From a virus (Duplodnaviria; Caudoviricetes): DNA of 64,000 nucleotides. The position numbers were made by a program, and so were the translations under genes. The notes under the pieces are model-generated. The model did not search any database. It was not told the origin of the DNA and saw only the letters and a program-made list of their open reading frames with translations. Every line of letters starts with the position of its first letter. Position 1 is the first letter of the stretch. Shown piece by piece: positions 5,571 through 51,198 of the stretch. Where the stretch lies: IMG/VR virus record IMGVR_UViG_3300028886_000035, positions 1-64,000 of that record; one strand, given 5' to 3'.

Positions 5571-5984
5571 TTATGCATCAATTGTTGTATTACCTATCGT
5601 TTCTTCTGTAACTTCATTTTCTTTTTTAGCAATTTCATCATCACTCTTATGACGAATTGCTTCAAATTCATTATAAAGTGTTGTTAAAACGGCAGGACTA
5701 ATAGCATTGAGGATTTTATTCTTCTGTTCATCTGTAAGAATTAATCCATTTACAGAAACAAGTGCGTGTTTCAAAATACTAATCTGCATACCAAACATAC
5801 GTGTAAGGTCATCCTGCTTATAACTTTGACTTTCCTTCAATGCATCAAGATATTCCTGTGAAGAAATTGGACGCATAGCCCATTTCTTACCATACTTTTC
5901 TACAATTTCTGTTTCTTCACTTGGGTCAATCAAATCTGCAAGCATTTCAGAAATAATCTTATCATTTTTATTCTTTGTTGCCAT
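5571..5984 (-). CDS. Tail assembly chaperone, short form (paralogue of the N-terminal part of 17804..18775)
   Basis: Lies between tape-measure genes. KYGKKWAMRPISSQE...LKHALVSVNG...ISPAVLTTLYNEF aligns with KFNKEWEFRTLDSEE...LQMALVSINH...LPPKVIETLYNEY. Confidence 0.6.
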   Translation of the reverse strand: MATKNKNDKIISEMLADLIDPSEETEIVEKYGKKWAMRPISSQEYLDALKESQSYKQDDLTRMFGMQISILKHALVSVNGLILTDEQKNKILNAISPAVLTTLYNEFEAIRHKSDDEIAKKENEVTEETIGNTTIDA

Positions 5985-36167: not shown

Positions 36168-36719
36168 TTATTTTGAACTTTTACGAGTTGTTGTTTTTTT
36201 TGTCGTAGAAGTTGTTTTTTTAGTTGATGCTTTATTTGTTTTCGTTGTACTTTTAGCACCTGTTTTAGAAGCACCATCAGCAACAACAACATCTGATTTT
36301 ACATCAGATTTAGTTTCTTTTGAAGAAGTACTTGACGCACCTGTAGCATCTACCACATCATCGTCTTTTTCTCCATTTTTTTCTTCAACCAAAGTCTTTT
36401 TATTTTCCTTTAGCTTATCAGCAGAAGAAGTCTTTGAAGCATTTGTTGCATTAATTACAGTAGTTTCTTCTTCTACATTCTTTGTTTTTACAGGAACTTC
36501 TTTAACATCAGAAGAAACCTTCTTTTCAGCAACTTTTTTAGCTTGCTTTTCGTTCCCAACCTTTGTTGCCGTAAGATATTCGCCTAGAAAAACTTTTATA
36601 TCTGTTGAATTTTCAAATTCTTCATCGGAAAATGTTTTTACAGTTTTAATAGGAGTGAACTCAAAGTTAAGGTCTTTGACATATATATTATAGTTGCCAT
36701 TTAAAGTAACCTTATACAA
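36168..36719 (-). CDS. Hypothetical protein with K/T/S-rich low-complexity tail
   Basis: TTG start behind AAGGA; promoter motif upstream. Confidence 0.6.
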   Translation of the reverse strand: MYKVTLNGNYNIYVKDLNFEFTPIKTVKTFSDEEFENSTDIKVFLGEYLTATKVGNEKQAKKVAEKKVSSDVKEVPVKTKNVEEETTVINATNASKTSSADKLKENKKTLVEEKNGEKDDDVVDATGASSTSSKETKSDVKSDVVVADGASKTGAKSTTKTNKASTKKTTSTTKKTTTRKSSK

Positions 36720-37287: not shown

Positions 37288-37326
37288 AAAAAATACTCCA
37301 TAGTTTTATACTATGGAGTGTTTTTT
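37288..37326 (-). terminator. Terminator closing the modification-enzyme operon
   Basis: ACTCCATAGT/ACTATGGAGT with flanking A/T runs. Confidence 0.65.
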
Positions 37327-37643: not shown

Positions 37644-37886
37644 TTACATCAACTCTGTCGTTGTATAAGAAACATTATATTCACCCTTGGAAGTGAACTT
37701 AACCGTTGCCTTTTTCCCTGCACCATCATCAACTGTAATTTTTACAAGACCATGTGATACAAGAAAATTGAGTAGGTCGCCTTTTGCAAATTTTTCCCAT
37801 TGAAGATTATCCATTACTGCCGTTGTTGAATCTACTGCCTGTTCATTTGTTTTTAGTTCATCTGACATAATAAATACCTCTTTCAA
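37644..37886 (-). CDS. Hypothetical protein
   Basis: GAGGT SD; probable start at MSDELK. Confidence 0.55.
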   Translation of the reverse strand: MKEVFIMSDELKTNEQAVDSTTAVMDNLQWEKFAKGDLLNFLVSHGLVKITVDDGAGKKATVKFTSKGEYNVSYTTTELM

Positions 37887-37928
37887 AAAAACAATTTAAA
37901 CATTTATATTTATATTATACATATACAA

Positions 37929-39719
37929 TTAAATAATGTCAACACATTTATCTATTTTTTTTATTAGACCATCATCTTGACACAACATGCTTTTCAAAAA
38001 TTCATAATCATTTTTATTCAAATGACCACAAATCATTGAATATTTATATAATGCCCATATACCGATTTCTTTTTTAGTTTTATAAATTCTATAAAGTTCT
38101 TCAATATCATTTGTACATAATATATTATATAATTCAGATATATAATTTAAATCATTATCAACATCAACAACAACATTAAATTTATTTAGAATATTGTTGT
38201 TTTCTTTTTCAATATGCTTCTCTAATATATTTAATATGTTACTTCTATTAATATTTTTTTTAGGAATCAATTTATAATCAATTATATATTTAATACAATC
38301 ATCAGGAATTAATCCGTACAATTCATTATATTTTTGCAATTTTATCAATTTTCTTACGAATGTTCCATTTATATCAAAATTTTTATTTTTTAGTTTTTTT
38401 CTTGGTATACATATTACATTAATATCATATTGCCAAAACATAGTTTTAAGAAGATTGATATGTTGTGATGTTACATTATCATTTGTTTCTATTCCACATA
38501 AAAAATGTTTTATATTAAATTTTATAAAAATATTCCTTACTATATCCAACAAAGTATATGTATTGCTACCAATATAATTTTTATTTTTCCTTATGCATAA
38601 ATTGTTATATTCCTTCCAAAATGTTTGATAAGAAAAAATATCTGGTAGTGTAATTACAACAACGTTATTATATTTCTTAGTCCCAATTTTAACTAAACTC
38701 TCACAATTTTTTTTATCAAAAATTAAGTCTATACCACTTTGCATTAAAAATACAATGAATTTATCAAACAACTTTGACCCAACTGATACCAAATAATCAT
38801 GTCCTAATGTATATGGATTACAACTCATAACTGTTGCTCCTACATTTTCATAAGCATACAAATTCATATTATTTAATTCATTATATAACGTTTGTATTTT
38901 GGTATTATTTATTTTATTATTATTAATAAAATCATATACTTTTAATTTTAAATAAATTAAATTAGAAATTTCTTCATATGCAAATGATGTATAGTGTGCA
39001 AAATCAATAAATTTATTATATGTTGTATTAGAATTAAAATAATCGTTTAAATAAATTGTTGCATAGTTATTAACAAAATCATTAAAATATATTTTTGGTA
39101 TACAACATATTACAATATCATTATTTAATATTTTTGTGTTTATTACTCTATGAAACATATTTTCTATAGTTTCACCATTTGTAGCGAAATTATGAACACA
39201 AAAACTTTTAACTTTTTTCTGCAAATAGCTTGCCATCGTTTCTTCATCAGAAACATAATATCCTAATATAGTTGAATTACCAAACAAAAAAATGTTTTTA
39301 TTCACATTTTTTTGATTTACAGTTCTTCGTTCTCCGTTTTTTATATTCATTGTTTTAGATTGATAATCTTCAACACAAAAAAATGATGAGTGTTGTACGT
39401 TATCAGGATTATCATTTGATATTGACAATAAATATTCTTCATCATATTCACGAAAACAATTATAATATAATTTTTTATTATGTTGAACAACATCTATAAA
39501 TTTATCTTTTGAAAAATTCTTTAACACAACATTAAATTCATTGTTATATGAATATTTATTATTGTATACATCGTCAGAAAATATATTACTAATACACCTT
39601 TCAAAATTATTTTTATTTATTACGTCTTTAACACACGGTTGTTCTAATAAAAATAATTTCCCACCCCTTATAGAAACATATTTATCTATATCTTTTAAAA
39701 TTGTATTTATATTTCCCAT
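37929..39719 (-). CDS. Fusion of an SGNH-like domain and a citrate-lyase-ligase (CitC) C-terminal-like nucleotidyltransferase domain
   Basis: IFLFGNSTILG...NFATNG...FIDFAHY (SGNH blocks with DxxH); GATVMSCNPYTLGHDYLV resembles CitC VMNxNPFTxGH. Confidence 0.55.
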   Translation of the reverse strand: MGNINTILKDIDKYVSIRGGKLFLLEQPCVKDVINKNNFERCISNIFSDDVYNNKYSYNNEFNVVLKNFSKDKFIDVVQHNKKLYYNCFREYDEEYLLSISNDNPDNVQHSSFFCVEDYQSKTMNIKNGERRTVNQKNVNKNIFLFGNSTILGYYVSDEETMASYLQKKVKSFCVHNFATNGETIENMFHRVINTKILNNDIVICCIPKIYFNDFVNNYATIYLNDYFNSNTTYNKFIDFAHYTSFAYEEISNLIYLKLKVYDFINNNKINNTKIQTLYNELNNMNLYAYENVGATVMSCNPYTLGHDYLVSVGSKLFDKFIVFLMQSGIDLIFDKKNCESLVKIGTKKYNNVVVITLPDIFSYQTFWKEYNNLCIRKNKNYIGSNTYTLLDIVRNIFIKFNIKHFLCGIETNDNVTSQHINLLKTMFWQYDINVICIPRKKLKNKNFDINGTFVRKLIKLQKYNELYGLIPDDCIKYIIDYKLIPKKNINRSNILNILEKHIEKENNNILNKFNVVVDVDNDLNYISELYNILCTNDIEELYRIYKTKKEIGIWALYKYSMICGHLNKNDYEFLKSMLCQDDGLIKKIDKCVDII

Positions 39720-40540
39720 TCTTTTTCCTCCATTGAACTAATTTTCCAATCAACCAAGGAATGTTTATGGCAATATTTACAAAAATTTATTCCTTCATCT
39801 TTATTATTTAATTCTATTATCTTATCTAAATTATTTATATTAAAAATATTAACATAATCTTTTCCATAGACCACTTTATATTTTTTATAAAAATAAACAT
39901 TGTACTTATCAATATTAGCAGGAATAATACAGGGGAAATAATCTCCGTTCCAATTTAATTGAGCACATGGAAATACATTATAAAATTCATAATTATTTTT
40001 ATCTTCATTTTGCTTAATTATGTCAATATCACAAGTATAATTATTACAACATTTGTATTTATTATTCCCATCAATATTTAAATTTGTTTTATAAAATTTT
40101 TTGCCAACATAATATTTTGAACACAAAATTTCAATATTATGACAAAAACAGTAGTCCTTAATTCTATCATTTAATAATATTCCATTTGTTACAATTTTCA
40201 AATTAATATTTGGAAAAATTCTTTTTGAAATGTCTAGTATTTCAAAAAGTTTGCTATGTAATAATGGTTCTCCACCCATTAAACTAATTCCATAAAATTT
40301 TTTATCTTTAATAATAAACTTAATCCTATTTAATAAATTTTCAAAAACCTGAACACCTATTTCTTTGTGTTTATAAACTAATGGGGCAAAATGGTCGCAG
40401 TAAGCACAATTTAAATTACAATCTTCAACAATAGATATATCTATTTTTCCTAATCCATTTTTTCGATATGATAATTCATCTATATATTTTTTTATTGTAT
40501 GCATATCTTTTTTTACTAATAAATCTATCATACCAATCAA
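39707..40540 (-). CDS. Radical SAM enzyme (short, non-SPASM)
   Basis: CNLNCAYCDHFAPL, MGGEPLLH, IVTNG; paralogue of 42376..43140. Confidence 0.9.
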   Translation of the reverse strand: MIGMIDLLVKKDMHTIKKYIDELSYRKNGLGKIDISIVEDCNLNCAYCDHFAPLVYKHKEIGVQVFENLLNRIKFIIKDKKFYGISLMGGEPLLHSKLFEILDISKRIFPNINLKIVTNGILLNDRIKDYCFCHNIEILCSKYYVGKKFYKTNLNIDGNNKYKCCNNYTCDIDIIKQNEDKNNYEFYNVFPCAQLNWNGDYFPCIIPANIDKYNVYFYKKYKVVYGKDYVNIFNINNLDKIIELNNKDEGINFCKYCHKHSLVDWKISSMEEKEWEI

Positions 40541-40541
40541 C

Positions 40542-41405
40542 TCACCCCATGATTAATTTAAGAATTAAGTCATCTTTTTTCATAAATAATTTATTTTCTA
40601 TTTCATTTTTTGTTATATTTAAATTTTGCTCTACATTATCATCAATATTAAATAACGAAAGATAATCAGTTAAACCATCATCTTGTGACTTATTTTTCGG
40701 AGAATAATGTACTTTTTTACCTAACCACAAAAATTCAAATATCATTTTCCCTATATTTTCAGAATATATTCCTTTTGTTATTTCTCTCCACCGTTGATAT
40801 TCTAATTTATTATACATCATATATTTAAATTTAATTTCATCTGTATCTTCAGTATTTCTTACGCTTTCATTAAATACCTGATTTATTACTGGAAATTTAT
40901 TTTTTATAAATTCTAACCTTTCATTTGAAAATTTATGATAATATAAATAATAATTATTCCTATAAAAATTCATATTAATTCGATTACCTAAAACAAAAAC
41001 ATTTTCCATCTGTTCAATATAATTATTTTTTATATTGTTATTTGTAATGTAATCATAAAACATTAAGCCTGAATCCAAAACAATTATTTTATTATAACAA
41101 AATTTCAAACAAGATAAATATTTTGTAATAGAAAATGAAACAATTAAAACATTAAATTTATTATTTTTATAAAATTTATCAATATTATTTATATCTATAA
41201 ATTCACAATTTACTTTATTAAGAGGTAAAGATTTATATATAGTTTTTATGTATAACATTTGTTCTTGTAGCTTCAAGCAATCAATAAAAATATAACATTT
41301 TAAATTAACTACACCATATTTTTTTAAATTGAAATATAAATCAAACAAAGATGTGGTTATTCCATTCATTTGTGGATAAAACAATATAATCCCAACATTA
41401 TCCAT
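40542..41405 (-). CDS. Putative divergent GT-B glycosyltransferase
   Basis: N-terminal NGITTS and C-terminal ENIGKMIFE (E-x7-E); paralogue of 45998..46909. Confidence 0.45.
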   Translation of the reverse strand: MDNVGIILFYPQMNGITTSLFDLYFNLKKYGVVNLKCYIFIDCLKLQEQMLYIKTIYKSLPLNKVNCEFIDINNIDKFYKNNKFNVLIVSFSITKYLSCLKFCYNKIIVLDSGLMFYDYITNNNIKNNYIEQMENVFVLGNRINMNFYRNNYYLYYHKFSNERLEFIKNKFPVINQVFNESVRNTEDTDEIKFKYMMYNKLEYQRWREITKGIYSENIGKMIFEFLWLGKKVHYSPKNKSQDDGLTDYLSLFNIDDNVEQNLNITKNEIENKLFMKKDDLILKLIMG

Positions 41406-42388
41406 TATTCTATCATACCTTTTATAATATTCTTTAAATTGTTTTCATCTTTTATTTTTAATATAATATTTCCTTTTTTTGTGACATAATTGTTATTTTT
41501 GATTTTAAAAAATAAATCATTTAAACATTCATCATATAAATTATTTATTATTACTAAATAGTTATAATTATAATATTTTTGTATTGCTTTTAAAACATTA
41601 ATCTTCTTTTCTATATCAAAATCAATAAAATACGATATATCAAAATGTAATTGGTTTACATCAATTTTTAAATCGGTTAAAACAATAGCTTTTCCTTTAT
41701 ACAACTGATAAAACTCATTATATAACATTCTCATATATTGAATTTGTGGATAAACATTCATTATTCTCTTAATATTTTTTCTAATAAAAAATTTTGCTAT
41801 TGGATAATCACAAAATTTATAATTTTTTGTTTTTGAAACATATCTAAAAATAATTTCATCATCTGCCATACGTTTATATCTTAAATCCCACCCACCAAAT
41901 TTATCATAACAAATTCTTTTATGAGCAAAAGAACAAGTGTCAACTTGATTATTTTCAAATATATCAACTTTAGAACAATCTAATCCTTTTTCTTCTATTT
42001 TACCATTATCATATACAATTAAATATTTTGTTGTAATAACTTCTGTATTTTTATCAATATAATTTAATAATTTTTCACAACAATATTTATCAACCTGGTC
42101 ATCATCATCAGGATAAATTACCCATTCACCGGTTGAATGTTCAACACCATAATTTCTTGCATAACAATGTCCATGATTTTTATCAAACCTATATAAAAAT
42201 ACTCTATCATCATTTAATTTATCAATAAAATTTTTCTTTAATTTATATTGATTTTTTTCGGAACAATCATCTACAACAATTAGTTCTATATTTTTATATG
42301 TTTGATTTACAATTGCTTGCACAGATAGCTTGAAATATTCATACCTATTAAAAGTTGGCATTATAAAAGAAAATTTTATTCCATCCAT
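41405..42388 (-). CDS. GT2-family glycosyltransferase
   Basis: FSFIMPTFNR, IVVDDCS, GHCYARNYG, YPDDDD. Confidence 0.9.
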   Translation of the reverse strand: MDGIKFSFIMPTFNRYEYFKLSVQAIVNQTYKNIELIVVDDCSEKNQYKLKKNFIDKLNDDRVFLYRFDKNHGHCYARNYGVEHSTGEWVIYPDDDDQVDKYCCEKLLNYIDKNTEVITTKYLIVYDNGKIEEKGLDCSKVDIFENNQVDTCSFAHKRICYDKFGGWDLRYKRMADDEIIFRYVSKTKNYKFCDYPIAKFFIRKNIKRIMNVYPQIQYMRMLYNEFYQLYKGKAIVLTDLKIDVNQLHFDISYFIDFDIEKKINVLKAIQKYYNYNYLVIINNLYDECLNDLFFKIKNNNYVTKKGNIILKIKDENNLKNIIKGMIE

Positions 42389-43140
42389 TCGTTCTTATCC
42401 TTTTTAGATTTTTCCCACTCTATATTTTCAATTGGTTTTCTACAATATTTACAAAAATCGTTCTTGTGAGTATAAAAATTACAGATTGTCTCATCTGTAA
42501 CTGAATCATCATATATATCTAATATGTCACCATCTTTTACTACAAAATTTTCATTAAAATAGTCATTAAATATATCTATATATGCTTGTATTGGGCATAA
42601 AAACAATTTCCCATCTTTTAGTTGTATACTTTCCCAATGTATCATACAACAATCAAATTCTGTTTGTTTTGCTTCATGTGTTAATATATGTTTTCTTAAA
42701 ATTTTTGTATATTGTTTTTTATTAAAATCTTTTGTTCTAATTCCTTCTATTTCTAACAATTTGAATATACCTTTATAATCAATGTTTACAGGATATTTAG
42801 TTATTTCAACTAAAATATCATATTTTTTTATATACGGTAATAACTCATGTAATCTTTGTAACAAAAGTAATCCATTAGTCAAAAAAGAAATATTTGTATT
42901 AGGGCTAATCTCTTTTATAGCATCAAAAAATAAACATATATTTTTATGTAATAATGGCTCCCCACCAAATATCCTAACATTATCCACATTAATTTTATTA
43001 GTTAATTGTTTAAAATCTTTTTTAAATTCTTCAACATTAGCAAACCATGATTTTGACAATGGGGCAAAATGAGCACACCCTTTACAATTTAAATTACAAT
43101 GGTTTGTAATATGATATTCTATCATTCTAAGATGTTTCAT
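42376..43140 (-). CDS. Radical SAM enzyme (short, non-SPASM)
   Basis: CNLNCKGCAHFAPL, FGGEPLLH, FLTNG, GKLFLCP, FCKYC. Confidence 0.9.
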   Translation of the reverse strand: MKHLRMIEYHITNHCNLNCKGCAHFAPLSKSWFANVEEFKKDFKQLTNKINVDNVRIFGGEPLLHKNICLFFDAIKEISPNTNISFLTNGLLLLQRLHELLPYIKKYDILVEITKYPVNIDYKGIFKLLEIEGIRTKDFNKKQYTKILRKHILTHEAKQTEFDCCMIHWESIQLKDGKLFLCPIQAYIDIFNDYFNENFVVKDGDILDIYDDSVTDETICNFYTHKNDFCKYCRKPIENIEWEKSKKDKNEWME

Positions 43141-43145
43141 AAAAT

Positions 43146-44387
43146 TTAGACTCCCTTATCTAATATTTTTTTTATTAACGATATTTTACTTAAATTCTGC
43201 CAAGTTGTATCGTCTGTTCTAAAAATATTAATTTTTACATTTTCAATATTTACAATTTTATCTAATGGAAAATACATCCATATATTTTTAACTAATTCTT
43301 TATCAGCAATTGAATTTGCATTTTTATTAATAGCATATGAATTTTTATAAACATATAAGCAACCTGGATTTAATACACAATCTTTAATTTTATTTAAAAT
43401 TATTTTGCTATCTTCTCCAACGATAAGCCAATCAAAAGCATTTTTTATATCAAATATACTAGTTCCAATAGTAAACTGTTTTGGATTTATATTTTTATTA
43501 TTAGTTGATATACAAACCTCATCAACTTTTTTTAATTGCTCCATTTTTAATTCATTCCATTTATAATTATTTTTTTTATAATCTTCTTTAGTAATAAGTT
43601 TTACGTTGTTTAATTTAATATTATCATTTTTTAATAACATATTAAATACTGTTTTACTCATATATGTAATATTTTCATTATCCATCGCCATTGGCAATCC
43701 TAATCTTGCTCCACAAAATTGACACCAATACATTTGTTTTTGATAACTAGTTTCTTTCCACCAATCTTTTTGAACTTTGAATCCTGTATTACCATCATAT
43801 AGCATGTCCATAGCTCCAGCCATTTCACAAAAAAAAGCACCATGATTATTAATTACTGCTCCACAATCATTATTTACCCAACAATTTTTACTTTGCTTAA
43901 TAAATTCTTCATCAGATATTCCAAGGTCTTTATAATAAACCATAGTTGTAAAATGATTAGTATAATTACTATGGTCATTACATCTTAAAGAATGAAATGT
44001 ATCATCAATATCTTCAAAATAATCATAAAACTGCTTTGGAACACTTGTAAATAATCTTAGTTTACCATTATTATCAGGCATAGTATTTAAAGCATAATCA
44101 TATATATCACTAATTGGATAACGAAAAAATCCATACTTTTTTTTGTATTTCGTTTGTAAATATTTCATTATTTCTTTAAAAAATGGATGTAATAATGGTT
44201 CTCCACCCATAATTGATATTTGCCCATTCCAATTATCCAATGAATCTATTGCATTTTTTACATCATGCAAATTCATAAAATATGGATTATTATTCAATTG
44301 ACAAAATCTCATACAATTAGCACATTTATTTACACATGAATTTGTAATATCTATCAAAATAGATTTTTTATCTTTAATTAATTTCAT
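43146..44387 (-). CDS. Radical SAM enzyme with C-terminal extension
   Basis: CVNKCANC, MGGEPLLHP, CW...C...GAFFCE...CQFC. Confidence 0.85.
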   Translation of the reverse strand: MKLIKDKKSILIDITNSCVNKCANCMRFCQLNNNPYFMNLHDVKNAIDSLDNWNGQISIMGGEPLLHPFFKEIMKYLQTKYKKKYGFFRYPISDIYDYALNTMPDNNGKLRLFTSVPKQFYDYFEDIDDTFHSLRCNDHSNYTNHFTTMVYYKDLGISDEEFIKQSKNCWVNNDCGAVINNHGAFFCEMAGAMDMLYDGNTGFKVQKDWWKETSYQKQMYWCQFCGARLGLPMAMDNENITYMSKTVFNMLLKNDNIKLNNVKLITKEDYKKNNYKWNELKMEQLKKVDEVCISTNNKNINPKQFTIGTSIFDIKNAFDWLIVGEDSKIILNKIKDCVLNPGCLYVYKNSYAINKNANSIADKELVKNIWMYFPLDKIVNIENVKINIFRTDDTTWQNLSKISLIKKILDKGV

Positions 44388-44392
44388 TATAA

Positions 44393-45982
44393 TTATTCCT
44401 TATACGAAACTTTATTTTCAATAATTAACCCATCTAATTTTTCTTGATACATTCTATACATATCACTAAAATAATTAAAAATTGGTAATCCACTATCATT
44501 AAACGATGTATTAATTAAAATTGCAACTCCTGTTTTGTTGCCAAACGCATATAACAAATTATATAACCATTTATCATCTTTTTCACTAACTGTTTGTATA
44601 CGAATTGTTCCATCTTTATGTATAGCACCTAACAAATTATCAATTTTAGGTTTAGCTAAAATATTCATATATGGAACTTGAATATTAATGTCAAAATATT
44701 CACTTATTTTATCATCAGGTACAATAATTCCGTATGGTCTATACCATTCTCTACCTTTAATGGTATTTAATCTATCATGCATTTCTTTATGAAATGGAGA
44801 AGCCAATATACTACGTCTACCTAACGCCCTAGCTCCCATTTCTATGTTACCACGACAAACGCCAACAATTTTATCATCATTTAATTTATCAACAAGCTCA
44901 TCTATATCGAATGTTTTAAATTTATTTTGTTTTCTCTCAAAAATTTCTTTTTCTTCCATATTATTCGTACAAGAATAATTATTTGATGAAATATATTTCA
45001 ATTCATCAGGTTTATAATGCAATAAATAATTTAAAACTGCACCGTATGACTGTCCTGTATCTGCAACTATAGGAGTATAATATACATGGTTAAACCAATT
45101 GGTTTTTTCAATCATATAATTTAGCATACAATTCATAGCGCAACCGCCCGAAAATACTAAATTATCACTTTCATGACGATATTGAGCCAATTCTCTCATT
45201 ATCCAATCAATCCATAATTTTTGCATTGTATATGCTAAATCATACTTATCAAATTCTTTACTTTGTTCATCCAAAAAATTATAAATATATGTTTCAATCG
45301 CTTCTTTATCTTCCCATATATTCCAATTTACATCTTTTATTGCTTTTTCAAAATCATCAATATTTTTAATCTGAACAAAATTATTAGATAAACCTGCATA
45401 AGCCATAAATTTTCCTTCTAAACCTTGTTCGTACTTATGACGCTTATCTAAAAAATAACAAGAAAGAACTTCATAATACATACCATAAGAAAATTTCTGT
45501 TCTTGATATAATTTTGTTAATTTATTATTTTGCCAATGATAGAAAGCATGATTTCCATCACCTTTACCATCTATAGATAAGCAAAGTGCGTCCTTTAAAT
45601 TATTTTCAATTATAGCAGGTAACACATGGTTTTCTTGATGATGGAATTTAATTACATCACAACGTTCCAACATTTTAACAAAATCATATGATTCTTTTTT
45701 CAAATACCCATCTTTAAATGTTTTATAATTCCAACAAACTACATCAAAATGGTCTACACCAAATTGTTCTTTGATAATTTTTTGACATTTATATAAATTA
45801 TTACGAAGTTTATCGTTATAAATTCTATCTATTTCAGGCATATAATCAATTATATCTGAATGAAAAGAAAAATGCTTCTTTTTTAAGAATTTTTCTAATT
45901 CAATATATTTTAATTCTTTTGTATCTGTATTATAATATGTAACATTATAGTCTTGATAACATTGTATTCCTAGAATTTTCAT
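44393..45982 (-). CDS. O-carbamoyltransferase (NodU/CmcH/TobZ family)
   Basis: HHxxH, IDGKGD, EGKFMAYA, FSGGCAMN, EMGARALGRRSILA, KGREWYRPY, HKDGTIRIQTV, LINTSFN. Confidence 0.9.
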   Translation of the reverse strand: MKILGIQCYQDYNVTYYNTDTKELKYIELEKFLKKKHFSFHSDIIDYMPEIDRIYNDKLRNNLYKCQKIIKEQFGVDHFDVVCWNYKTFKDGYLKKESYDFVKMLERCDVIKFHHQENHVLPAIIENNLKDALCLSIDGKGDGNHAFYHWQNNKLTKLYQEQKFSYGMYYEVLSCYFLDKRHKYEQGLEGKFMAYAGLSNNFVQIKNIDDFEKAIKDVNWNIWEDKEAIETYIYNFLDEQSKEFDKYDLAYTMQKLWIDWIMRELAQYRHESDNLVFSGGCAMNCMLNYMIEKTNWFNHVYYTPIVADTGQSYGAVLNYLLHYKPDELKYISSNNYSCTNNMEEKEIFERKQNKFKTFDIDELVDKLNDDKIVGVCRGNIEMGARALGRRSILASPFHKEMHDRLNTIKGREWYRPYGIIVPDDKISEYFDINIQVPYMNILAKPKIDNLLGAIHKDGTIRIQTVSEKDDKWLYNLLYAFGNKTGVAILINTSFNDSGLPIFNYFSDMYRMYQEKLDGLIIENKVSYKE

Positions 45983-45997
45983 ATATCCAACTTCTTT

Positions 45998-46909
45998 CTA
46001 AAACAATGATAAAAATTCATCATTTGATTGCATAAATAATTTTTCTTCAAAATATTGTTTTTCTTTGTTTGTAAAAATATATGTATTATTATCATCTAAA
46101 TCCAAATAATTCATATATTCACTTAAACCATCATAAAACTTTTTGTTTTTTGGTAAATACTGTGATTCTTTCCCCAATAAAATAAATTCAAACATTAATT
46201 TACCAATATTTTCGTAATATCTCGCACCATCATCTGTGTATAAATTATCATTATTTTTTTTATCATATCTATAATATAAATATTTTTTATAATCAAACGG
46301 TTTAATATTATTACCATTTATTTTATTTTTATAATAATCTTCTGCAATTAAAATATCATTTTTTGTTGTAGATAACTTCTTTAATTTTTCTATTCGTTCT
46401 TTAGAAAATTTCATATACCAAATAAAATTATCTTCCACAAATTTAGAATTATATTGATTGCAAACTGTCAAAACTTTGTGTTCCTTTATATAATTTATTT
46501 CATCATTGTATATTGTTAAATCTTTTTGTTGTTTTTTATATATAAATGCAGGATATAATAAAATCTCTTGTTTTGCAGATTGTTTAAAACGATTATTTTT
46601 TTGCAATTTGATTATTTCTGAACTTATGATATTTATATCACCTTTTATATTATAAGTCATTTTTTTATGTTTAATGATACTTGTATTTCCATACGTATCC
46701 ATGTATTTTCCAACCCATAAAGGCAAATAACAAATACCATCACCAAATGCTAAATATTCCCTAAATCGTCTTAACAAATTTTTATCTTCGTATAAAATAA
46801 TAAATCTTACATCATGATTTGTAAACTTTCTTAAATTATAAAATGTATCTTCAAATGATGTATAAGCTCCATTTAATTCATAAAACAAATAAATTAAGTT
46901 AATTTTCAT
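45998..46909 (-). CDS. Putative divergent GT-B glycosyltransferase
   Basis: NGAYTS and ENIGKLMFE (E-x7-E); paralogue of 40542..41405. Confidence 0.45.
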   Translation of the reverse strand: MKINLIYLFYELNGAYTSFEDTFYNLRKFTNHDVRFIILYEDKNLLRRFREYLAFGDGICYLPLWVGKYMDTYGNTSIIKHKKMTYNIKGDINIISSEIIKLQKNNRFKQSAKQEILLYPAFIYKKQQKDLTIYNDEINYIKEHKVLTVCNQYNSKFVEDNFIWYMKFSKERIEKLKKLSTTKNDILIAEDYYKNKINGNNIKPFDYKKYLYYRYDKKNNDNLYTDDGARYYENIGKLMFEFILLGKESQYLPKNKKFYDGLSEYMNYLDLDDNNTYIFTNKEKQYFEEKLFMQSNDEFLSLF

Positions 46910-48044
46910 CGTCTACACTCTCAATACATTCATTGATTTTTTTCATAATATTATTTATATCATATTTTTTTGCTTCGTCTAAACAATTTTGTCTCATATT
47001 AGATTTGCCAATCTTCATAATTTTATCCATATTTTCATCAAAATTATTATCGATTAACCATCCATTATATCCATCTTTAATAAGGTAATTCATTACTTTA
47101 CATTCTTTAAACCCAACTATGGGTACACCATACGATAATGCTTCTATAATAACTGTCGGCAATCCTTCATATTTTGATGGAACAACCAAAACATCTGCAT
47201 TTTTGTAAAATGCACTTACATTTTCTTGATAACCGTAATAATGTATATTTGGATAATTATATTTATCCATATCTATATATCCAAAACCTTTATAACTATA
47301 TCCGACTACATCACATTCATAATCTGTATTTTTAACCCAATCTAACAATATATGTGTTCTTTTTGTATCACTATTAATACGCCCAACATATAATATTTTA
47401 TTTCTATTAGATTTAATATCAATATTATTCGGGATATCTATGCAATTATAAAAGACAACCGACTTTTCTTTATATTTTTCACTTATATATTGCGGTAATA
47501 AAAAAGCCAATATATCACAATTTTTTAATACTAATTCATATAAACTTTTTTCATCTTTTAAAATTTCTTGTTTACGAATATAATCCATAGCACGAATATG
47601 AGTAATAGTATCCATCATAAACTGCGGTTCATTATGAAAAAACATAATAATTGGTATTTTAGAAACTTTTGATATAATTGTCCAAAATAATGCATCTTGT
47701 CCACAACTAGCATTACAAAATATACATTTAGGTTTTATATTTCTAATTTTAACTACATAATCATTAATTAGTCCACGAGATAAATATGTATTTATATTTG
47801 TATGTATTGTAACATTATCAATATCAACACATTTTTCTCCTGAAATAAATAAATGGACATTATATTTTTTGCTCAATTCATTGCAAATTTTTAATGTATA
47901 TCTTTCTGCTCCCCACAAATAATTATGTGTTTCTCTTTTACCCATACTATTTGTAACGACTACTGTATTATTGTCACCTATATATGTATCAAATTTATTT
48001 CCTATCATAAATTGCAATAGAAACATATCATTTTTTGTATTCAC
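46899..48044 (-). CDS. GT4-family (GT-B) glycosyltransferase
   Basis: GAERY, ILYVGRI, ADVLVVPSKYEGLPTVIIEALSYGVPIV, DGYNGWL. Confidence 0.9.
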   Translation of the reverse strand: MNTKNDMFLLQFMIGNKFDTYIGDNNTVVVTNSMGKRETHNYLWGAERYTLKICNELSKKYNVHLFISGEKCVDIDNVTIHTNINTYLSRGLINDYVVKIRNIKPKCIFCNASCGQDALFWTIISKVSKIPIIMFFHNEPQFMMDTITHIRAMDYIRKQEILKDEKSLYELVLKNCDILAFLLPQYISEKYKEKSVVFYNCIDIPNNIDIKSNRNKILYVGRINSDTKRTHILLDWVKNTDYECDVVGYSYKGFGYIDMDKYNYPNIHYYGYQENVSAFYKNADVLVVPSKYEGLPTVIIEALSYGVPIVGFKECKVMNYLIKDGYNGWLIDNNFDENMDKIMKIGKSNMRQNCLDEAKKYDINNIMKKINECIESVDDEN

Positions 48045-48867
48045 GGCAAGCCATCCTCAAAAGTTTAGTTTCGTATTCTTTATTTATTCTATCTTCTGCA
48101 TACATCTTCCAAATTTCACCAAATAAAGAACTTTTCTTCCACGGTTTAGGATTACTAGCAAAATGTAAAATTCGTATATTATCAGATTTTATTTTTTCAC
48201 CATAAATACGAATTAATTCATTAAACCTATATTTGCTATATGTATTAGCTAAAAAATTATATCCATAACTAATATATTTTATTTTCCCTAAAAATGCTTT
48301 ATTTAAAACATCTTGCTCCCATAAAAAACCTTTATTTTCTTTTAGTTCTTTATTCAATTCGTCATAATAAACATACATTGTTTTATCTTTATCTATTATA
48401 CTTTCTCTAATCTTTTTTAAATTAAAATACACATTACCTGCATTAAAATATGAAAATCCATTTATTTTGTCTCTTACTGCTCCACAAAAATAATCTGATA
48501 TATTGATATTAAATATATCAGATATATCTTTTATAACAATAGTATCTGAATCAATATGAAATACTGTATCACAATCTAATAAATTATGTAACAATAATTT
48601 GTAATATACAACACCTGCATTATCATCTGATACAAAAATATTTTTATCTATATAAATTGGTATTATATGAAAATCATCACTATCTAAACTTTTAATATCC
48701 TGTATATCTTTAAATTCTATACATAATAAATAAACATCGTAACAAATGTCACGATGTTTATTGAATTTCAATGATTTCATTGAAATATATGTTTGAAATA
48801 GATAAGATTGATTTGTCATATAAACTATATTAAAACAGTTTTCCTGACAACTCATAATAAGCCTCAC
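48028..48867 (-). CDS. GT8-family glycosyltransferase
   Basis: HIDSDT (DxD), YFNAG, EQDVLN, ILHFASNPKPW. Confidence 0.9.
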   Translation of the reverse strand: MRLIMSCQENCFNIVYMTNQSYLFQTYISMKSLKFNKHRDICYDVYLLCIEFKDIQDIKSLDSDDFHIIPIYIDKNIFVSDDNAGVVYYKLLLHNLLDCDTVFHIDSDTIVIKDISDIFNINISDYFCGAVRDKINGFSYFNAGNVYFNLKKIRESIIDKDKTMYVYYDELNKELKENKGFLWEQDVLNKAFLGKIKYISYGYNFLANTYSKYRFNELIRIYGEKIKSDNIRILHFASNPKPWKKSSLFGEIWKMYAEDRINKEYETKLLRMACREYKK

Positions 48868-49465
48868 TAATTTCTTGTTTTGTCTTTGCAGCTTTAATCT
48901 TTTCTTTATATTCTTTATATTTCATATAAACTGCATCAATAGCATTAAAATCATCAAGAGAATCAAGATATTCTGAAAGTTTTTCTAGTGTTTCTGTATC
49001 GCCACTATTAATTACTTCCAAATATTTTTCTTCCCTATTTTCATCTGTAATAAAGAAACCTTTAGCTTCAAGATAATGGTTTAATTTAAAGAAATGATAT
49101 AATTCAAAATTAGAAATCATTAATTGATTACTAATTAATTCATTAATCATTCTTAATGTTTTTTCTTTATAAGCATCTAAAACATCTTCGTCTGTTTCTT
49201 CTTGTAATTGTTCTACCTTAATTAAATCAGATACATCATATACTTTACTAGCATCTATTTCTCCATCAATATAAATAAGCATACGTGGTTCACGATGTTC
49301 CAAATCTAATTCTTGAACAACATAAGTATATGCTTCTGGTGTTAACCAAACATATTCTTTATTACTTAGCAAAACTTGTTCCATATCTAATTTCTGAAAT
49401 GGTTCAATTAAAAAATTTTTACCATCTTGTTCAAGAGTTTTACAAAAAAAATTCATTGTCGCCAT
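48830..49465 (-). CDS. Hypothetical protein (possible fibre-assembly/accessory protein)
   Basis: Acidic, helical; C-terminus KEKIKAAKTKQEI is reminiscent of fibre-assembly proteins (weak). Confidence 0.45.
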   Translation of the reverse strand: MATMNFFCKTLEQDGKNFLIEPFQKLDMEQVLLSNKEYVWLTPEAYTYVVQELDLEHREPRMLIYIDGEIDASKVYDVSDLIKVEQLQEETDEDVLDAYKEKTLRMINELISNQLMISNFELYHFFKLNHYLEAKGFFITDENREEKYLEVINSGDTETLEKLSEYLDSLDDFNAIDAVYMKYKEYKEKIKAAKTKQEISEAYYELSGKLF

Positions 49466-49731
49466 TATTCTGTCTCCTTATTAATTTCTTCAATAATACT
49501 ATCAATATTTTTTTCTTCTTTTTCTTCTTTTAATTGTACGTTTTCATCATAGTCTAATCCATATTTTCTTCCCATACTTATCATAGACATAGATATAATA
49601 CTATTAATAGCTTGATATGCAACCTTATCTAACGGATAAATCATTTGACGAGCCATTTCTAAAAAATTTCGTTCCGTCAACATAAATTCCAAAATTTTCT
49701 GTTTTTCTTCTTTTGTTTGTTCTTTTATCAA
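49465..49731 (-). CDS. Small hypothetical protein
   Basis: AAAGGA SD; stop overlaps the next start. Confidence 0.55.
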   Translation of the reverse strand: MIKEQTKEEKQKILEFMLTERNFLEMARQMIYPLDKVAYQAINSIISMSMISMGRKYGLDYDENVQLKEEKEEKNIDSIIEEINKETE

Positions 49732-49752: not shown

Positions 49753-51138
49753 TTATACAATATATTGATATGAATAGCACCAACCACGAACTTTAACAAC
49801 ATAACAAGCACAGGAAGCTTCATGTCCAAAACAAGAGCAATAATTACAATTGCAAACACATAAACTAGAAATTAAATTGATAGCTTTCATAAAATATGTT
49901 GCTACATTCGTACCTGCAATATTTAATGTATATTCACCTCTTGTAATTCCTAAAGGATTCATACAAAATCTTGCTACTGTAATATTTGATTCTTGTGAAA
50001 AATTCCTTGTTTCTATCTGTTTTATTGGATTACCATTAACATCTTTCATAATGTTACCGTTTTTATCTTTAACCACGGTTTCTCTTGTACCAATACAATT
50101 TTGAACAAACATTGGGTCAATATCACCTGCTTCAGATATTCCACCTAATAAAGCAGTTCTCCATCTGTACACATAAGTATATAGGTCTGAAGGTATATAT
50201 CCAAATACATCAAATGCAGGTTTTCTAATGCCATCATCATAAGTTACATACTTAACATAATCTATATTGCCATATGGTCTGCGTTTAGGTTGATATATAA
50301 CACCCCCACCTAAATTATATATTGGTTGCGTTGAATATCCATAAATATCACTTGTTAGTAGATTGTCTGGTTCATGTGCAGAAACAACAGTATTGCCTTC
50401 AATATTGTTTATTTCATCTTGCTGTATTCCTGAATGTCGATATACATATTCTCTCATATCTGAACCTGTAAACCAGTTATTCCCTTTATGTGAACCAACA
50501 TTTATTTCAGAAGCATTAGGATTATAATCTAATTGAGCGAAATCAGGTTCATTCTTTGCAGATGTATTAACGGTAGTTGAAGAACCACCACTACTATAAG
50601 TTATAATACTGTCACTTTTATCTACTGACAATGGGAACGTTTGTATAGGCAATCTATCATTAACAGAACTTGATGCTTTAGCTGGTAACTCAATTTTAAA
50701 TAATGTCAATATATCAGAAAAAATTTTTTCTATATCACTTTGGCGTATTTTGTCACCACTAGCCATATATCCACTATGCCCATTTTGGGAATCCAATTGA
50801 GCACTCATTGGTTGCAAAGTTCCTGGTCCATTCATAAAATTATTTCTTAACATAAATTCTTGGCGAATTTTAATTAGCAAAGCATTCCATTCATCATTTG
50901 TAATTGGATTATCATCAAAATTTTCTCTCAATCTAGTTGAACGCCTTTGATAGCTATGATTTGCTAAATATGATTGTGAACTACTATCGAATGTTGACCA
51001 CAAACTAGTGGAAAATTCATAGTCTTTATCACCACCTGGTGTACCATATGGTTTGCATATAGGAAATTTTCCTGTTGGGTCAGGAACATATTGATAAAAT
51101 CCGTCGCCTTTAAATCTATTTGCTATTTGTACTGACAT
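49753..51138 (-). CDS. 461-aa protein with Cys-rich C-terminus; candidate substrate of the adjacent SPASM enzymes
   Basis: Ends CVCNCNYCSCFGHEASCACYVVKVRGWCYSYQYIV; own promoter motif upstream. Confidence 0.6.
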   Translation of the reverse strand: MSVQIANRFKGDGFYQYVPDPTGKFPICKPYGTPGGDKDYEFSTSLWSTFDSSSQSYLANHSYQRRSTRLRENFDDNPITNDEWNALLIKIRQEFMLRNNFMNGPGTLQPMSAQLDSQNGHSGYMASGDKIRQSDIEKIFSDILTLFKIELPAKASSSVNDRLPIQTFPLSVDKSDSIITYSSGGSSTTVNTSAKNEPDFAQLDYNPNASEINVGSHKGNNWFTGSDMREYVYRHSGIQQDEINNIEGNTVVSAHEPDNLLTSDIYGYSTQPIYNLGGGVIYQPKRRPYGNIDYVKYVTYDDGIRKPAFDVFGYIPSDLYTYVYRWRTALLGGISEAGDIDPMFVQNCIGTRETVVKDKNGNIMKDVNGNPIKQIETRNFSQESNITVARFCMNPLGITRGEYTLNIAGTNVATYFMKAINLISSLCVCNCNYCSCFGHEASCACYVVKVRGWCYSYQYIV

Positions 51139-51183
51139 ATCTATATCAACTCCATTATATATTTATTTTCAAAAAATTGATTA

Positions 51184-51198
51184 TCTATTTAATAAATA
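51184..51198 (-). promoter_or_regulatory. Phage promoter-like motif TATTT-N6-TAGA (Cys-rich protein and glycosylation cluster)
   Basis: TATTT ATTAAA TAGA in a 60-nt intergenic gap. Confidence 0.55.

Follow-up and report, generated by a model that had tools for sequence, protein, structure and literature searches.

Ten minus-strand open reading frames at positions 37929-48867 (~11 kb) of the window, i.e., the whole stretch of 64,000 nucleotides analysed here, very probably constitute a multi-enzyme line for an unusual, strain-variable tailored glycan. They belong to the 281-kb genome (98% complete) of an uncultured rumen phage. As a sequence-only reading of the window had proposed, the genes encode five glycosyltransferases together with an O-carbamoyltransferase and radical SAM enzymes of the sugar type. 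All ten frames were recovered at the coordinates given by that reading, and neighbouring frames either overlap by 1-38 nt or are separated by 1-15 nt. Such long frames at 20-25% G+C, together with coherent functions, are no product of chance. No protein encoded between 33 and 57 kb includes a hydrophobic stretch of transmembrane strength, and all ten operon proteins are soluble.

The unit had, however, been drawn too small. Upstream, the operon is coupled to the genes for p211, p88 and a 461-aa Cys-tailed protein, which are preceded by two SPASM radical SAM genes, and all of these partners had been left out (Table 1). The earlier claim that no terminator lies between 51138 and ~37326 was borne out: from 51138 to 37326, the minus strand has no terminator-like site other than two weak hairpins within genes. 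The perfect promoter of the next unit marks the operon's 3' border. The promoter-like word AATAGATAAT also occurs 49-51 nt upstream of the start codons of two other genes, one in the tail region (5571-5984) and one in the head region (82958-83437), and a promoter common to the operon and tail genes is in this respect plausible, but the case is thin because the genome contains only six intergenic copies of the word. Adjacency to virion genes holds in part: the tail sheath gene is 8.5 kb from the operon, whereas the direct neighbours have no known function, so the label of a structural region rests on genes several kb away.

Table 1. Features of the operon, its upstream partners and its borders.
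Feature	Coordinates	Strand	Basis or remark
SPASM-type radical SAM enzyme 1, 347 aa	52272..53315	-	PHROG radical SAM family, E 2e-33
SPASM-type radical SAM enzyme 2, 358 aa	51199..52275	-	Pfam Radical_SAM, E 7e-12
Promoter-like word AATAGATAAT	51175..51189	-	51 nt upstream of Cys-tailed protein gene start
Cys-tailed protein, 461 aa, candidate glycan acceptor	49753..51138	-	N-end FPICKPYG, 8-Cys tail CVCNCNYCSC...
p88, small coupled ORF	49465..49731	-	21 nt after Cys-tailed protein gene; 1-nt overlap with p211
p211, acidic protein	48830..49465	-	38-nt overlap with GT8 gene
GT8, retaining GT-A	48028..48867	-	DSD motif; Pfam PF01501, E 3.8e-20
GT4, GT-B	46899..48044	-	Pfam PF00534 (Glycos_transf_1), E 2.8e-24
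Compact GT-B A, 303 aa	45998..46909	-	Invariant E-x7-E; AlphaFold model
O-carbamoyltransferase, TobZ/NodU/GdmN type, 529 aa	44393..45982	-	Pfam, PHROG and PDB matches
Divergent radical SAM enzyme, 413 aa	43146..44387	-	CVNKCANC motif; Pfam Radical_SAM, E 4.9e-7, barely over cut-off
Twitch-type radical SAM enzyme, 254 aa, candidate SpeY/BtrN-like sugar dehydrogenase	42376..43140	-	Profile and Foldseek
GT2, inverting GT-A	41405..42388	-	DDDD motif; Pfam PF00535, E 8e-31
Compact GT-B B, 287 aa	40542..41405	-	Paralogue of A, 29% identity
Second Twitch-type radical SAM enzyme, 277 aa	39707..40540	-	Pfam Radical_SAM, E 4e-11
SGNH-like and CitC-like adenylate-forming nucleotidyltransferase, 596 aa	37929..39719	-	Domains ~127-243 and 294-479
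Promoter of next unit (80-aa gene), TTGACA-17-TATAAT	37914..37942	-	12/12 consensus matches
First good intrinsic terminator downstream of operon	37295..37319	-	10-bp stem and T run

The glycosyltransferases comprise a GT8, a GT4, a GT2 and two compact GT-B enzymes, and Pfam matches agree with the family calls made from the sequence for the first three, as well as for the carbamoyltransferase and the three radical SAM enzymes. Relatives in the PDB include 3tzt, GlyE (5gvv), LgtC and the Skp1 galactosyltransferase for GT8, PglH, SdgB, WaaB and GtfA for GT4, and heparosan synthase, TarP, GalT1, TarS and SpsA for GT2, which a genome-wide search showed to be the sole GT2 of the phage. The compact proteins A and B, earlier described as GT-B-like, have no Pfam or NCBIfam match. 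The AlphaFold (AF2) model of A (pLDDT 88.5) nevertheless aligns over its full length with GT4-type GT-B enzymes, in accordance with that description. Its structural relatives include HepE, PglH and BshA (VIA Z 13.1), the T4 alpha-glucosyltransferase (Z 12.1) and TarM. The E-x7-E residues E233 and E241 are invariant, the family has ~140 representatives in the whole protein library, and a third paralogue is encoded at genome positions 73406-74560. The model thus points to A and B as a new glycosyltransferase family with the GT-B fold. The identity of the glycosyltransferase families says nothing about the acceptor; their relatives act on teichoic acid (TarM, TarP, TarS) as well as on DNA.

The three Radical_SAM matches (E values 4.9e-7 to 7.9e-13) all pass the Pfam cut-off. 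The suggestion that these are non-SPASM enzymes was upheld for two of the three. Among enzymes of solved structure, these two are closest to the Twitch dehydrogenase SpeY and, after it, to BtrN. The 254-aa enzyme, whose gene overlaps that of GT2 by 13 nt, matches SpeY (PDB: 7wzv) by profile (E value 6.5e-18) and by Foldseek (E value 1.9e-11; TM 0.6), and BtrN by a full-length profile match (E value 1.6e-5). It includes the invariant CxxxCxxC motif together with C182, C230 and C233, and the 277-aa enzyme shares both its family and its conserved Cys residues. The 413-aa enzyme has no informative PDB relative; its gene is present in the related genome G003 and missing from G001 and G002. The carbamoyltransferase matches Carbam_trans_C (E value 1e-46) and Carbam_trans_N (E value 1e-14), both at full length, as well as PHROG 1601 (E value 1e-87), and its PDB relatives are NovN, GdmN and TobZ (E values 3e-27 to 5e-21). 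In the 596-aa protein, the CitC-like part of the earlier call is well founded (Pfam Citrate_ly_lig, E value 3.4e-21, full model length), whereas the SGNH part is weakly supported by an NCBIfam GDSL match far under its cut-off (E value 4e-6) and by the GNS and DxxH (DFAH) motifs visible in the sequence. A TLGH motif is visible as well. The protein is a candidate ATP-dependent O-acylating enzyme and has only five homologues in 5.8 billion proteins.

Upstream, the SPASM enzyme 1, whose gene overlaps that of enzyme 2 by 4 nt, is kept in relatives and in distant loci. Among relatives, conservation of the Cys-tailed protein is limited to both ends, while p88 is 83% identical to its G001 counterpart. 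Five distant viral contigs (L045, L048, L050, L053 and L054) share the order SPASM pair, Cys-ladder protein, p211 and enzyme array, and searches seeded separately with the GT-B family and with SPASM enzyme 2 both converged on them. Profile matches to SPASM enzyme 2 were found in L045, L048 and L053 (E values 1e-30 to 1e-42). Homologues of p211, none of them a named protein in the database, are present in all five (E values 1e-10 to 1e-19), always between the Cys-ladder gene and the array. The array genes that were annotated, a minority of the total, include radical SAM genes, a compact GT-B in four of the five, and at times a carbamoyltransferase (L053), DegT (L054) or GT2 (L045). Three of the distant Cys-ladder proteins end in SD[IK]RLK, and in L048 and L050 the next ORF shows a weak match to the C-terminus of a tail fibre of known structure (E value 0.09; conditional 1e-6). 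Two or three of these proteins thus appear to carry a self-cleaving C-terminal chaperone motif of the tail-fibre type and look like fibres. In the window's own protein this motif is absent and the Ser/Thr content is just moderate. The linkage suggests, through guilt by association, that the Cys-ladder proteins and the arrays work together.

Genes for a UDP-sugar dehydrogenase (75248-76546) and a DegT aminotransferase (80499-81569) are located in the neighbourhood of the capsid gene (78005-78850). In the closest relative, the corresponding position is occupied by a fuller locus, which comprises genes for a ThDP enzyme, a Twitch radical SAM enzyme and a GT2 as well as four DegT genes, and which adjoins a capsid gene that is 100% identical; there, a radical SAM dehydrogenase and aminotransferases stand side by side.

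Compared with G001, identity is 74-87% over the flanks and the first half of the operon. In the second half, it falls to 51% for the radical SAM gene and 31% for GT2, and three genes are missing from G001, while G003, more distant overall, has 71% and 56% identity for the same two genes. The four relatives present four differing gene sets or orders. Variation like that of a serotype locus, which the sequence-only reading had named as a check, was therefore found: the second half is exchanged like a serotype cassette between conserved flanks.

A protein of the phage's own particle is the most likely acceptor, because the operon is coupled to the Cys-tailed gene, whose distant counterparts are fibre-like, because the pairing of Cys-ladder gene and enzymes is kept in distant phages, and because sugar-nucleotide genes flank the capsid gene. 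These points are new support for the virion protein proposed earlier, although the acceptor is still a candidate. On balance, we slightly favour the reading in which a glycan that is tailored, carbamoylated and probably also aminated and acylated is built in the cytoplasm on a virion protein, the Cys-tailed protein being the leading candidate. The ten genes would be the enzyme half of a single late, translationally coupled operon running from the promoter-like word upstream of the Cys-tailed gene down to 37929. Since all products are soluble, synthesis would be cytoplasmic and would proceed straight on a macromolecular acceptor, without a lipid carrier or flippase. GT8, GT4, both compact GT-B enzymes and GT2 might add sugars sequentially from nucleotide-sugar donors, some of them remodelled by the capsid-side UDP-sugar dehydrogenase and DegT aminotransferase. 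Both Twitch enzymes could then transform a sugar hydroxyl into a ketone, which would allow transamination or epimerisation at the oxidised position. The carbamoyltransferase would form carbamoyl-AMP and O-carbamoylate a sugar, and the 596-aa protein may adenylate a small carboxylate, e.g., acetate, and pass it to a sugar hydroxyl. Stapling of the Cys tail is probably the task of the SPASM pair, and a role in presenting the Cys-tailed protein to the enzymes is possible for p211. The outcome would be a variable glycan at the surface, serving in receptor contact or as a shield, with its composition traded among related phages as a serotype cassette.

It is rather improbable, in our judgement, that the enzymes instead build a sugar-based carbamoylated adduct on a phage DNA base and so evade host nucleases. 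Such targets, DNA or nucleotides, stay alive because distant homologues of the Twitch radical SAM and GT2 pair (28-34% identity) are flanked in other phages by NrdD/NrdG, a dUTPase-like gene and RuvC; in L012, L015 and L018 the pair lies inside a replication/nucleotide module (PolIII alpha, NrdD, NrdG, dUTPase-like, RuvC). The 111 neighbours of distant homologues include dUTPase (4), 5'-3' exonuclease (3), ThyX (2) and NUDIX (2). The T4 enzyme resembled by the compact GT-B model glycosylates DNA, and an arms race with restriction enzymes would likewise account for cassette-like variation. As a published precedent, some phages have gene clusters whose products attach mono- to trisaccharides to 5hmC (bioRxiv 10.1101/2023.12.21.572611), and 5-carboxymethylcytosine has been described as an anchor for additional hypermodification (PMC12783734). 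The genome, however, has no ThyA-family hydroxymethylase; a TET/JBP search of it gave no match, its control being equally silent. Nor does the operon co-vary with CmoA/CmoX, since G001 has both Cmo genes and lacks the CitC-like gene, whereas G003 (86% complete) has the full operon and lacks the Cmo genes.

Decoration of a host polymer at the cytoplasmic face (teichoic acid, capsule or S-layer glycan precursor), whether to block superinfection or to keep progeny off debris, we consider unlikely. TarM, TarP and TarS, relatives of the GT4 and GT2 enzymes, are soluble and glycosylate wall teichoic acid; a lack of membrane proteins is compatible with such enzymes. The PHROG label of GT2 is 'GtrB-like O-antigen conversion' (E value 6e-13), and low genome G+C would fit a Gram-positive host. 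Yet the 98% complete genome has no integrase, while serotype conversion is typical of temperate phages, the operon encodes no initiating phosphoglycosyl transferase, flippase or membrane protein, five glycosyltransferases and six tailoring functions exceed known phage conversion modules by far, and the conserved partner gene encodes a phage fibre-like protein rather than a host-directed one. Least credible, and very unlikely, is a free product, either an aminoglycoside-like pseudo-oligosaccharide or a glycosylated, thioether-stapled peptide released from the Cys tail as a phage bacteriocin or host-control molecule. Sacti- and ranthipeptides follow the logic of SPASM enzymes combined with Cys-rich cores. 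Aminoglycoside pathways supply the nearest characterised relatives of three enzyme types (SpeY/BtrN, TobZ and DegT-type aminotransferases), and in a cyanophage, a homologue of the short radical SAM enzyme is encoded next to genes that its authors annotated as antibiotic synthesis (PMC12801897). Against this, no sugar-phosphate cyclase (DHQ synthase family) was found in G000, G001 or G003 by a search whose control worked, the operon has no exporter, leader-peptidase-like gene or membrane protein, the Cys-tailed proteins are full-size (164-470 aa) and two or three of the distant ones appear to bear the fibre-type motif, and five glycosyltransferases exceed the needs of such metabolites.

The proposed glycosylation of a virion protein in the cytoplasm has parallels among GlyE, SdgB, GtfA and GalT1, near relatives of the GT8, GT4 and GT2 enzymes, which glycosylate Ser-rich proteins in that compartment. 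For the proposed oxidation, the models are SpeY and BtrN, which oxidise a sugar hydroxyl to the ketone and need neither NAD nor oxygen. In the published DNA-glycan clusters, a methyltransferase and an oxygenase adjoin the glycosyltransferases, and at most three sugars are added to 5hmC (bioRxiv 10.1101/2023.12.21.572611), whereas the operon described here has five glycosyltransferases with tailoring enzymes and, as its conserved partner, a Cys-ladder gene.

The viral record is 281,186 bp long (about 98% complete by estimate), and its first 64 kb, which make up the window, have a G+C content of about 20-34% and carry nearly all genes on the minus strand. Genes for a tail sheath protein (27226-29391), for a helicase and for a nucleotidyltransferase mark the virus as a large tailed phage. 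The sequence-only reading had described a ten-gene operon in this region, and this observation is confirmed: all ten open reading frames are present, and adjacent frames either overlap by 1-38 nt or are separated by 1-15 nt. The operon extends beyond the limits first drawn, as the genes for p211, p88 and a 461-aa Cys-tailed protein lie upstream on the same strand and are coupled to the GT8 gene. A promoter-like word, AATAGATAAT, is positioned 51 nt ahead of the start of the 461-aa gene and is seen again 49-51 nt before one gene of the tail region and one of the head region. No convincing terminator occurs ahead of 37319-37295, in keeping with the earlier claim. The operon, the tail sheath gene (8.5 kb off) and the head genes share one strand, and the immediate neighbours of the operon are without annotation. 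The absence of membrane proteins also holds for 33-57 kb, where the top 19-residue hydropathy of any protein is 1.58, which corresponds to no transmembrane segment; on the same hydropathy analysis, the locus has no lipid-carrier (Wzx/Wzy or ABC type) membrane transferase, flippase or polymerase.

Features of the probable glycan operon, its upstream partners and associated loci
Feature	Position	Strand	Basis or remark
Two SPASM radical SAM genes	52272-53315 and 51199-52275	-	overlapping each other; ahead of the 461-aa protein gene
461-aa protein gene	49753-51138	-	same strand, upstream of GT8; eight-Cys tail
p211	48830-49465	-	same strand; 38-nt overlap with the GT8 gene (ORF coordinates)
GT8	48028-48867	-	Pfam, 73 bits (cut-off 24)
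GT4	46899-48044	-	Pfam, 86 bits (cut-off 26)
GT-B orphans A and B	45998-46909 and 40542-41405	-	paralogues, 29% identity
Two-domain carbamoyltransferase	44393-45982	-	Pfam
Three radical SAM genes (413, 254 and 277 aa)	43146-44387, 42376-43140 and 39707-40540	-	Pfam Radical_SAM above cut-off
GT2	41405-42388	-	Pfam, 108 bits (cut-off 23)
596-aa SGNH+CitC-like protein	37929-39719	-	Pfam citrate-lyase-ligase-like domain
Sigma-70 promoter	37942-37914	-	perfect consensus TTGACA-17-TATAAT; start of next unit (80-aa gene)
Sugar-nucleotide locus of the closest relative (G001)	8310-16763 of contig L014		beside the capsid gene

Two small genes near the downstream end of the operon deserve mention. The 80-aa gene which directly follows it (37644-37886) has 98.7% identity to its counterpart in the closest relative, compared with 70-87% for its neighbours, and its product is probably highly expressed and under strong constraint. 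Two genes downstream of the operon, a 183-aa protein (36168-36719) contains three V-x-A-[TD]-[NG]-A-S-K-[TS] repeats and a Thr/Lys-rich tail with 17 Ser/Thr per 30 residues; it is a candidate alternative glycan acceptor.

The GT8, GT4 and GT2 glycosyltransferases (GT) all exceed the curated Pfam cut-offs for their families. The two GT-B orphans are without a match in Pfam, NCBIfam or PHROGs at E <= 0.01, and their assignment to the GT-B fold, proposed earlier from the sequence, is borne out by an AlphaFold model (pLDDT 88.5) which superposes over its full length on the GT4-type enzymes HepE, PglH and BshA (Z 13.1; 242-255 residues aligned, rmsd 4.5-5.2 A). All of the top 30 matches in a structure search with this model were GT-B transferases. 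The E-x7-E motif of retaining GT4-type enzymes is present, with E233 and E241 invariant in alignments of 15 and 33 sequences. Among 1.84 billion proteins searched with a profile, only about 140 representatives were found, all of 260-310 aa, and these compact GT-B proteins form a small, separate and unannotated family. A third paralogue is encoded at genome position 73406-74560, while a scan of bacterial species genomes with the family patterns gave no confirmed member.

Among the three radical SAM enzymes, the 413-aa protein is divergent and has no informative relative. The 254-aa and 277-aa proteins are of the Twitch type and belong to one family, most of whose members are viral. The motif CxxxCxxC near the N-end (C15, C19, C22) is invariant among 8 aligned sequences, as are C182, C230 and C233 toward the C-terminus, and a fourth Cys near position 164 is nearly conserved; the AF2 model of the 254-aa enzyme has low confidence in this putative auxiliary-cluster region (pLDDT <50 at 141-165 and 233-254). 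By far the closest solved relative is PDB 7wzv (profile E value 6.5e-18; Foldseek E value 1.9e-11, TM 0.59-0.63), which carries the Foldseek title 'Twitch Radical SAM Dehydrogenase SpeY', and BtrN is matched over its full length (profile E value 1.6e-5). Thus both sequence and fold place SpeY and BtrN as the nearest solved relatives. It is established, and indicated by their PDB titles, that SpeY and BtrN oxidise a secondary alcohol group on a sugar-like ring, giving a ketone. The phage enzymes resemble SpeY (7wzv) and BtrN (4m7t) in size (254-277 aa here, 250-320 aa there), in the CxxxCxxC motif and in conserved C-terminal Cys residues that may bind an auxiliary [4Fe-4S] cluster. However, identity is only about 20%, and SpeY and BtrN act on aminocyclitol antibiotics, while the phage Twitch enzymes are predicted dehydrogenases.

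The likeness to BtrN extends to gene content, as the phage genome encodes a DegT-type aminotransferase just as BtrN is accompanied by its aminotransferase. Genes for a UDP-glucose/GDP-mannose-type dehydrogenase and a DegT aminotransferase flank the capsid gene, 10-17 kb past the window. In the closest relative, whose capsid gene is 100% identical, this site is intact and encodes a ThDP transketolase-like protein, a Twitch radical SAM enzyme, a GT2 and four DegT proteins. At this site (80499-82241), the genome under study has just a single DegT gene and a radical SAM fragment of 103 aa, which points to a recent deletion. By analogy, a Twitch dehydrogenase beside aminotransferases would follow the logic of BtrN, i.e., oxidation and then transamination.

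The carbamoyltransferase has both domains of its family, with Carbam_trans_N covering model positions 1-345 of 346 and Carbam_trans_C positions 2-167 of 170, each above the Pfam cut-off. Its PDB relatives are NovN, GdmN and TobZ. It shares with TobZ, NodU, GdmN and NovN the full-length Kae1-like and YrdC-like domains, and its sequence includes HHQENH, a candidate metal-binding His motif of the HHx3H form. Its identity to members from cyanophages and bacteria is about 26-30%. Since it scores 119 bits against the 1000-bit cut-off of the NodU equivalog NF041651, it is a member of the family and not a NodU orthologue. Similarly, the CitC-like domain of the 596-aa protein matches PF08218 over the entire model (E value 3.4e-21; 2-182 of 182) and has a TLGH motif, while the score with the CitC equivalog TIGR00124 is 49 bits against a cut-off of 262, and no citrate lyase was matched among the Pfam-scanned genes of 33-57 kb. 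The protein thus has the domain in common with CitC, but not the function. The N-terminal part gave only a weak NCBIfam GDSL/SGNH match (E value 4e-6; 26 bits, where the cut-off is 300), with GNS and DFAH (DxxH) motifs recognized by eye.

The whole block, from a 910-aa gene to the 80-aa gene, is kept in four related viral contigs. In a comparison with the closest relative, G001, identity is 74-87% in the flanks and in the operon's first half (GT8, GT4, GT-B A and the carbamoyltransferase), whereas past the carbamoyltransferase it falls to 51% for the Twitch enzyme and 31% for GT2; G001 has no counterpart of the 413-aa enzyme, GT-B B or the CitC-like gene. In G003, a relative that is more distant overall, the Twitch enzyme and GT2 are 71% and 56% identical, though gene order differs, and G002 has yet another gene set in the second half. 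Because identity drops in G001, is higher in the more distant G003, and the set of G002 differs, the second half is exchanged between lineages like a serotype cassette, a variation that the sequence-only reading had proposed to look for. Within the window, G+C is lowest (0.20, compared with 0.29-0.34 in the tail genes) at 38001-42000, in the variable half, which fits a separately exchanged cassette. In two related contigs, two genes for DNA methyltransferases with a DPPY motif are inserted at the two borders of the locus (L004, 5080-6282 and 18834-19766; L005, 5148-6350 and 19861-20793), and these are absent from the window. Searches of GenBank phages gave no megablast match to the whole locus and no tblastn match to the CitC-like protein or GT-B B; by tblastn, GT8 matched two fragments from human faecal samples only, and the Twitch enzyme one cyanophage and one marine virus. 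As no locus match was obtained among GenBank phages, we conclude that no cultured relative carries it.

Two independent locus searches, one with the compact GT-B family and one with the second SPASM protein (SPASM2) as query, converged on one gene order that is shared by five contigs of distant viruses (L045, L048, L050, L053 and L054). The SPASM pair is followed by one or two Cys-ladder proteins, which are distant counterparts of the 461-aa protein, then by a p211 homologue (E values 1e-10 to 1e-19) and an array of 10-20 closely spaced genes, all in one direction, for proteins of 270-340 aa; the L054 contig begins at p211 only. Compact GT-B proteins are present in four of the five arrays (E values 1e-54 to 1e-71), with none in L045, where 269- and 296-aa proteins encoded after p211 gave hhalign E values of 0.24 and 0.046 with the family, neither significant. 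Other array members include many radical SAM genes, two carbamoyltransferases (L053), a DegT (L054) and a GT2 (L045). SD[IK]RLK forms the C-terminal end of the Cys-ladder proteins in L048, L050 and L053, and the small ORF that follows in L048 and L050, with a GF/VIAQ motif, weakly matches the C-end of the solved tail fibre 8jov (E value 0.09, conditional 1e-6). We take this combination to be the signature of the self-cleaving intramolecular chaperone (Peptidase_S74) of phage fibres. The putative chaperone is split in L048 (4118-4920) and L050 (517-1328), the first dozen residues being on the Cys-ladder protein and the rest forming a separate ORF of 84-90 aa with its own RBS. In Campylobacter phage CP220, a SPASM2-like gene lies among tail genes and no glycan array is nearby. 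The SPASM pair adjoins a putative Cys-rich target, as do the SPASM thioether synthases CrpC/CrpA and CteB/SCIFF; this comparison, for which linkage alone was examined here, concerns the upstream module and not the glycan genes.

In toto, the operon very probably encodes a glycan assembly line, and a virion protein is its somewhat favored target. Because of the conserved linkage and the fibre-like Cys-ladder ends, the Cys-tailed protein is the best candidate for both the particle protein and the acceptor, although we name it as the specific target only tentatively. A further proposal, which must be considered speculative, is that the SPASM pair, p211 and the glycan operon constitute a single maturation line for a virion fibre, with stapling and glycan on the same protein and the cassette as its serotype locus. 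In such a line, the enzymes would staple the Cys ladder of the fibre end by thioethers, after which an oligosaccharide, O- or S-linked and bearing amino, carbamoyl and acyl groups, would be built on the stapled protein. The swappable half of the operon would then be a viral 'serotype locus' able to retune receptor recognition or antigenicity with the fibre gene unchanged.

Hypermodification of DNA by the operon enzymes is improbable. It would agree with the finding that distant homologues of the Twitch and GT2 pair are located in replication modules and that nucleotide-metabolism genes recur among the neighbours, but a ThyA-family hydroxymethylase was not found in the genome with a valid control, and published DNA-glycan clusters are smaller and adjoin their own methyltransferase and oxygenase genes (bioRxiv 10.1101/2023.12.21.572611). 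A search for TET/JBP also gave no match, its control being equally silent. Moreover, the operon and the CmoA/CmoX carboxymethylcytosine cassette do not co-vary among relatives, for which reason adenylation of DNA 5-carboxymethylcytosine by the CitC-like domain was also dropped. The CmoX-like cytosine methyltransferase homologue of G001 (96069-97958; L039/L040) lies in a 637-aa open frame, and its two matching parts are separated by an insert of about 1 kb, which may be an intein or a homing endonuclease. In viral contig L012 (8308-12110; also L015 and L018), genes for a short Twitch-like radical SAM enzyme and a 207-aa GT2 lie together, surrounded by NrdD/NrdG, a dUTPase-like gene and RuvC; the pair is a candidate module for nucleotide or DNA sugar modification.

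Modification of the host envelope, which is similarly improbable, might be suggested by the TarM/TarP/TarS-type relatives of the transferases, but the genome is without an integrase and the conserved partner is fibre-like. A temperate lifestyle with serotype conversion was likewise dropped, no integrase having been found in the genome. Synthesis of an aminoglycoside-like metabolite is unlikely, since a sugar-phosphate cyclase (DHQ synthase family, PF01761) is absent from the genome under study, G001 and G003, while the control matched 11 of 14 genomes; the aminoglycoside pathway was dropped as no cyclase of the 2-deoxy-scyllo-inosose synthase type was found in these three.

Few and small systems of particle self-glycosylation are known in phages, the elaborate factories being known from giant eukaryotic viruses, and the locus would bring a glycan factory of full complexity, with anaerobic chemistry, to bacterial viruses. 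Predicted radical SAM dehydrogenases would take the place of the NAD enzymes of aerobes, with carbamoylation and ATP-driven acylation added. The locus also offers the Cys-tailed protein as a concrete, testable candidate acceptor, and it defines both a gene architecture met repeatedly among large uncultured phages and a compact GT-B family that is new. Were the glycan to be on a fibre, cassette exchange would be a new route to changes in host range or immune evasion among gut and rumen phages, with a bearing on phage therapy and on the reading of 'auxiliary metabolic genes' in viromes. Should stapling and glycosylation indeed converge on one fibre, no earlier case would combine RiPP-type with glycan modification on a full-size structural protein of a virus, and radical SAM sugar chemistry would be attributed to a virus particle for the first time.

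The glycans of the Mimivirus fibril and the chlorovirus capsid are made from clade-specific clusters by a host-independent cytoplasmic line, include rare amino sugars and vary in content between close clades. With these the phage locus would share a virus-encoded glycosylation line, and its gene content likewise differs between close relatives. Giant viruses have eukaryotic hosts and NAD-dependent sugar chemistry, whereas here a bacterial virus from an anoxic habitat has predicted radical SAM sugar enzymes. Cytoplasmic O-glycosylation of the Ser-rich repeat adhesins of Firmicutes (GtfA/B, Gtf3, GlyE, GalT1; SdgA/B) employs the same mixture of soluble enzymes (GT4, small GT-B, GT8 and GT2), which work on the protein in sequence, and adhesin-glycosylation enzymes are among the nearest solved relatives of the operon GTs. 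However, the operon is without SecA2/Y2 export genes or a long Ser-rich repeat protein, and the resemblance is at the family level only.

Glycosylating mycobacteriophages are known to have only a few GT genes each, whereas here there are five, together with a carbamoyltransferase, three radical SAM enzymes, a candidate acylating enzyme and sugar-nucleotide genes at a separate site, and the acceptor is a predicted one. According to Freeman et al. (2023, Cell Host Microbe), as cited in PMC12619734, mycobacteriophages have their own GT genes among late and structural genes, with glycans on particle proteins serving as a surface shield; the present phage, too, has GT genes of its own. Phage DNA-glycan clusters combine a C5-methyltransferase, a 5mYOX/TET enzyme and GTs, and produce glycans of 1-3 sugars; they too are variable, and their GTs are akin to BshA, MshA and PglH, repurposed from envelope pathways (bioRxiv 10.1101/2023.12.21.572611). 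In contrast, such a methyltransferase and oxygenase were not found beside the operon here, and the published glycans are without carbamoyl or radical SAM tailoring (bioRxiv 10.1101/2023.12.21.572611). The tailoring enzymes of the operon were not met in the phage glycosylation literature searched, nor did our incomplete coverage of the literature return a published account of such a phage locus. Compared with these systems, the locus is a new and far more elaborate form of virus-encoded glycosylation, distinguished by predicted radical SAM sugar chemistry and carbamoylation, a new GT-B family and the conserved link to SPASM and Cys-ladder proteins.
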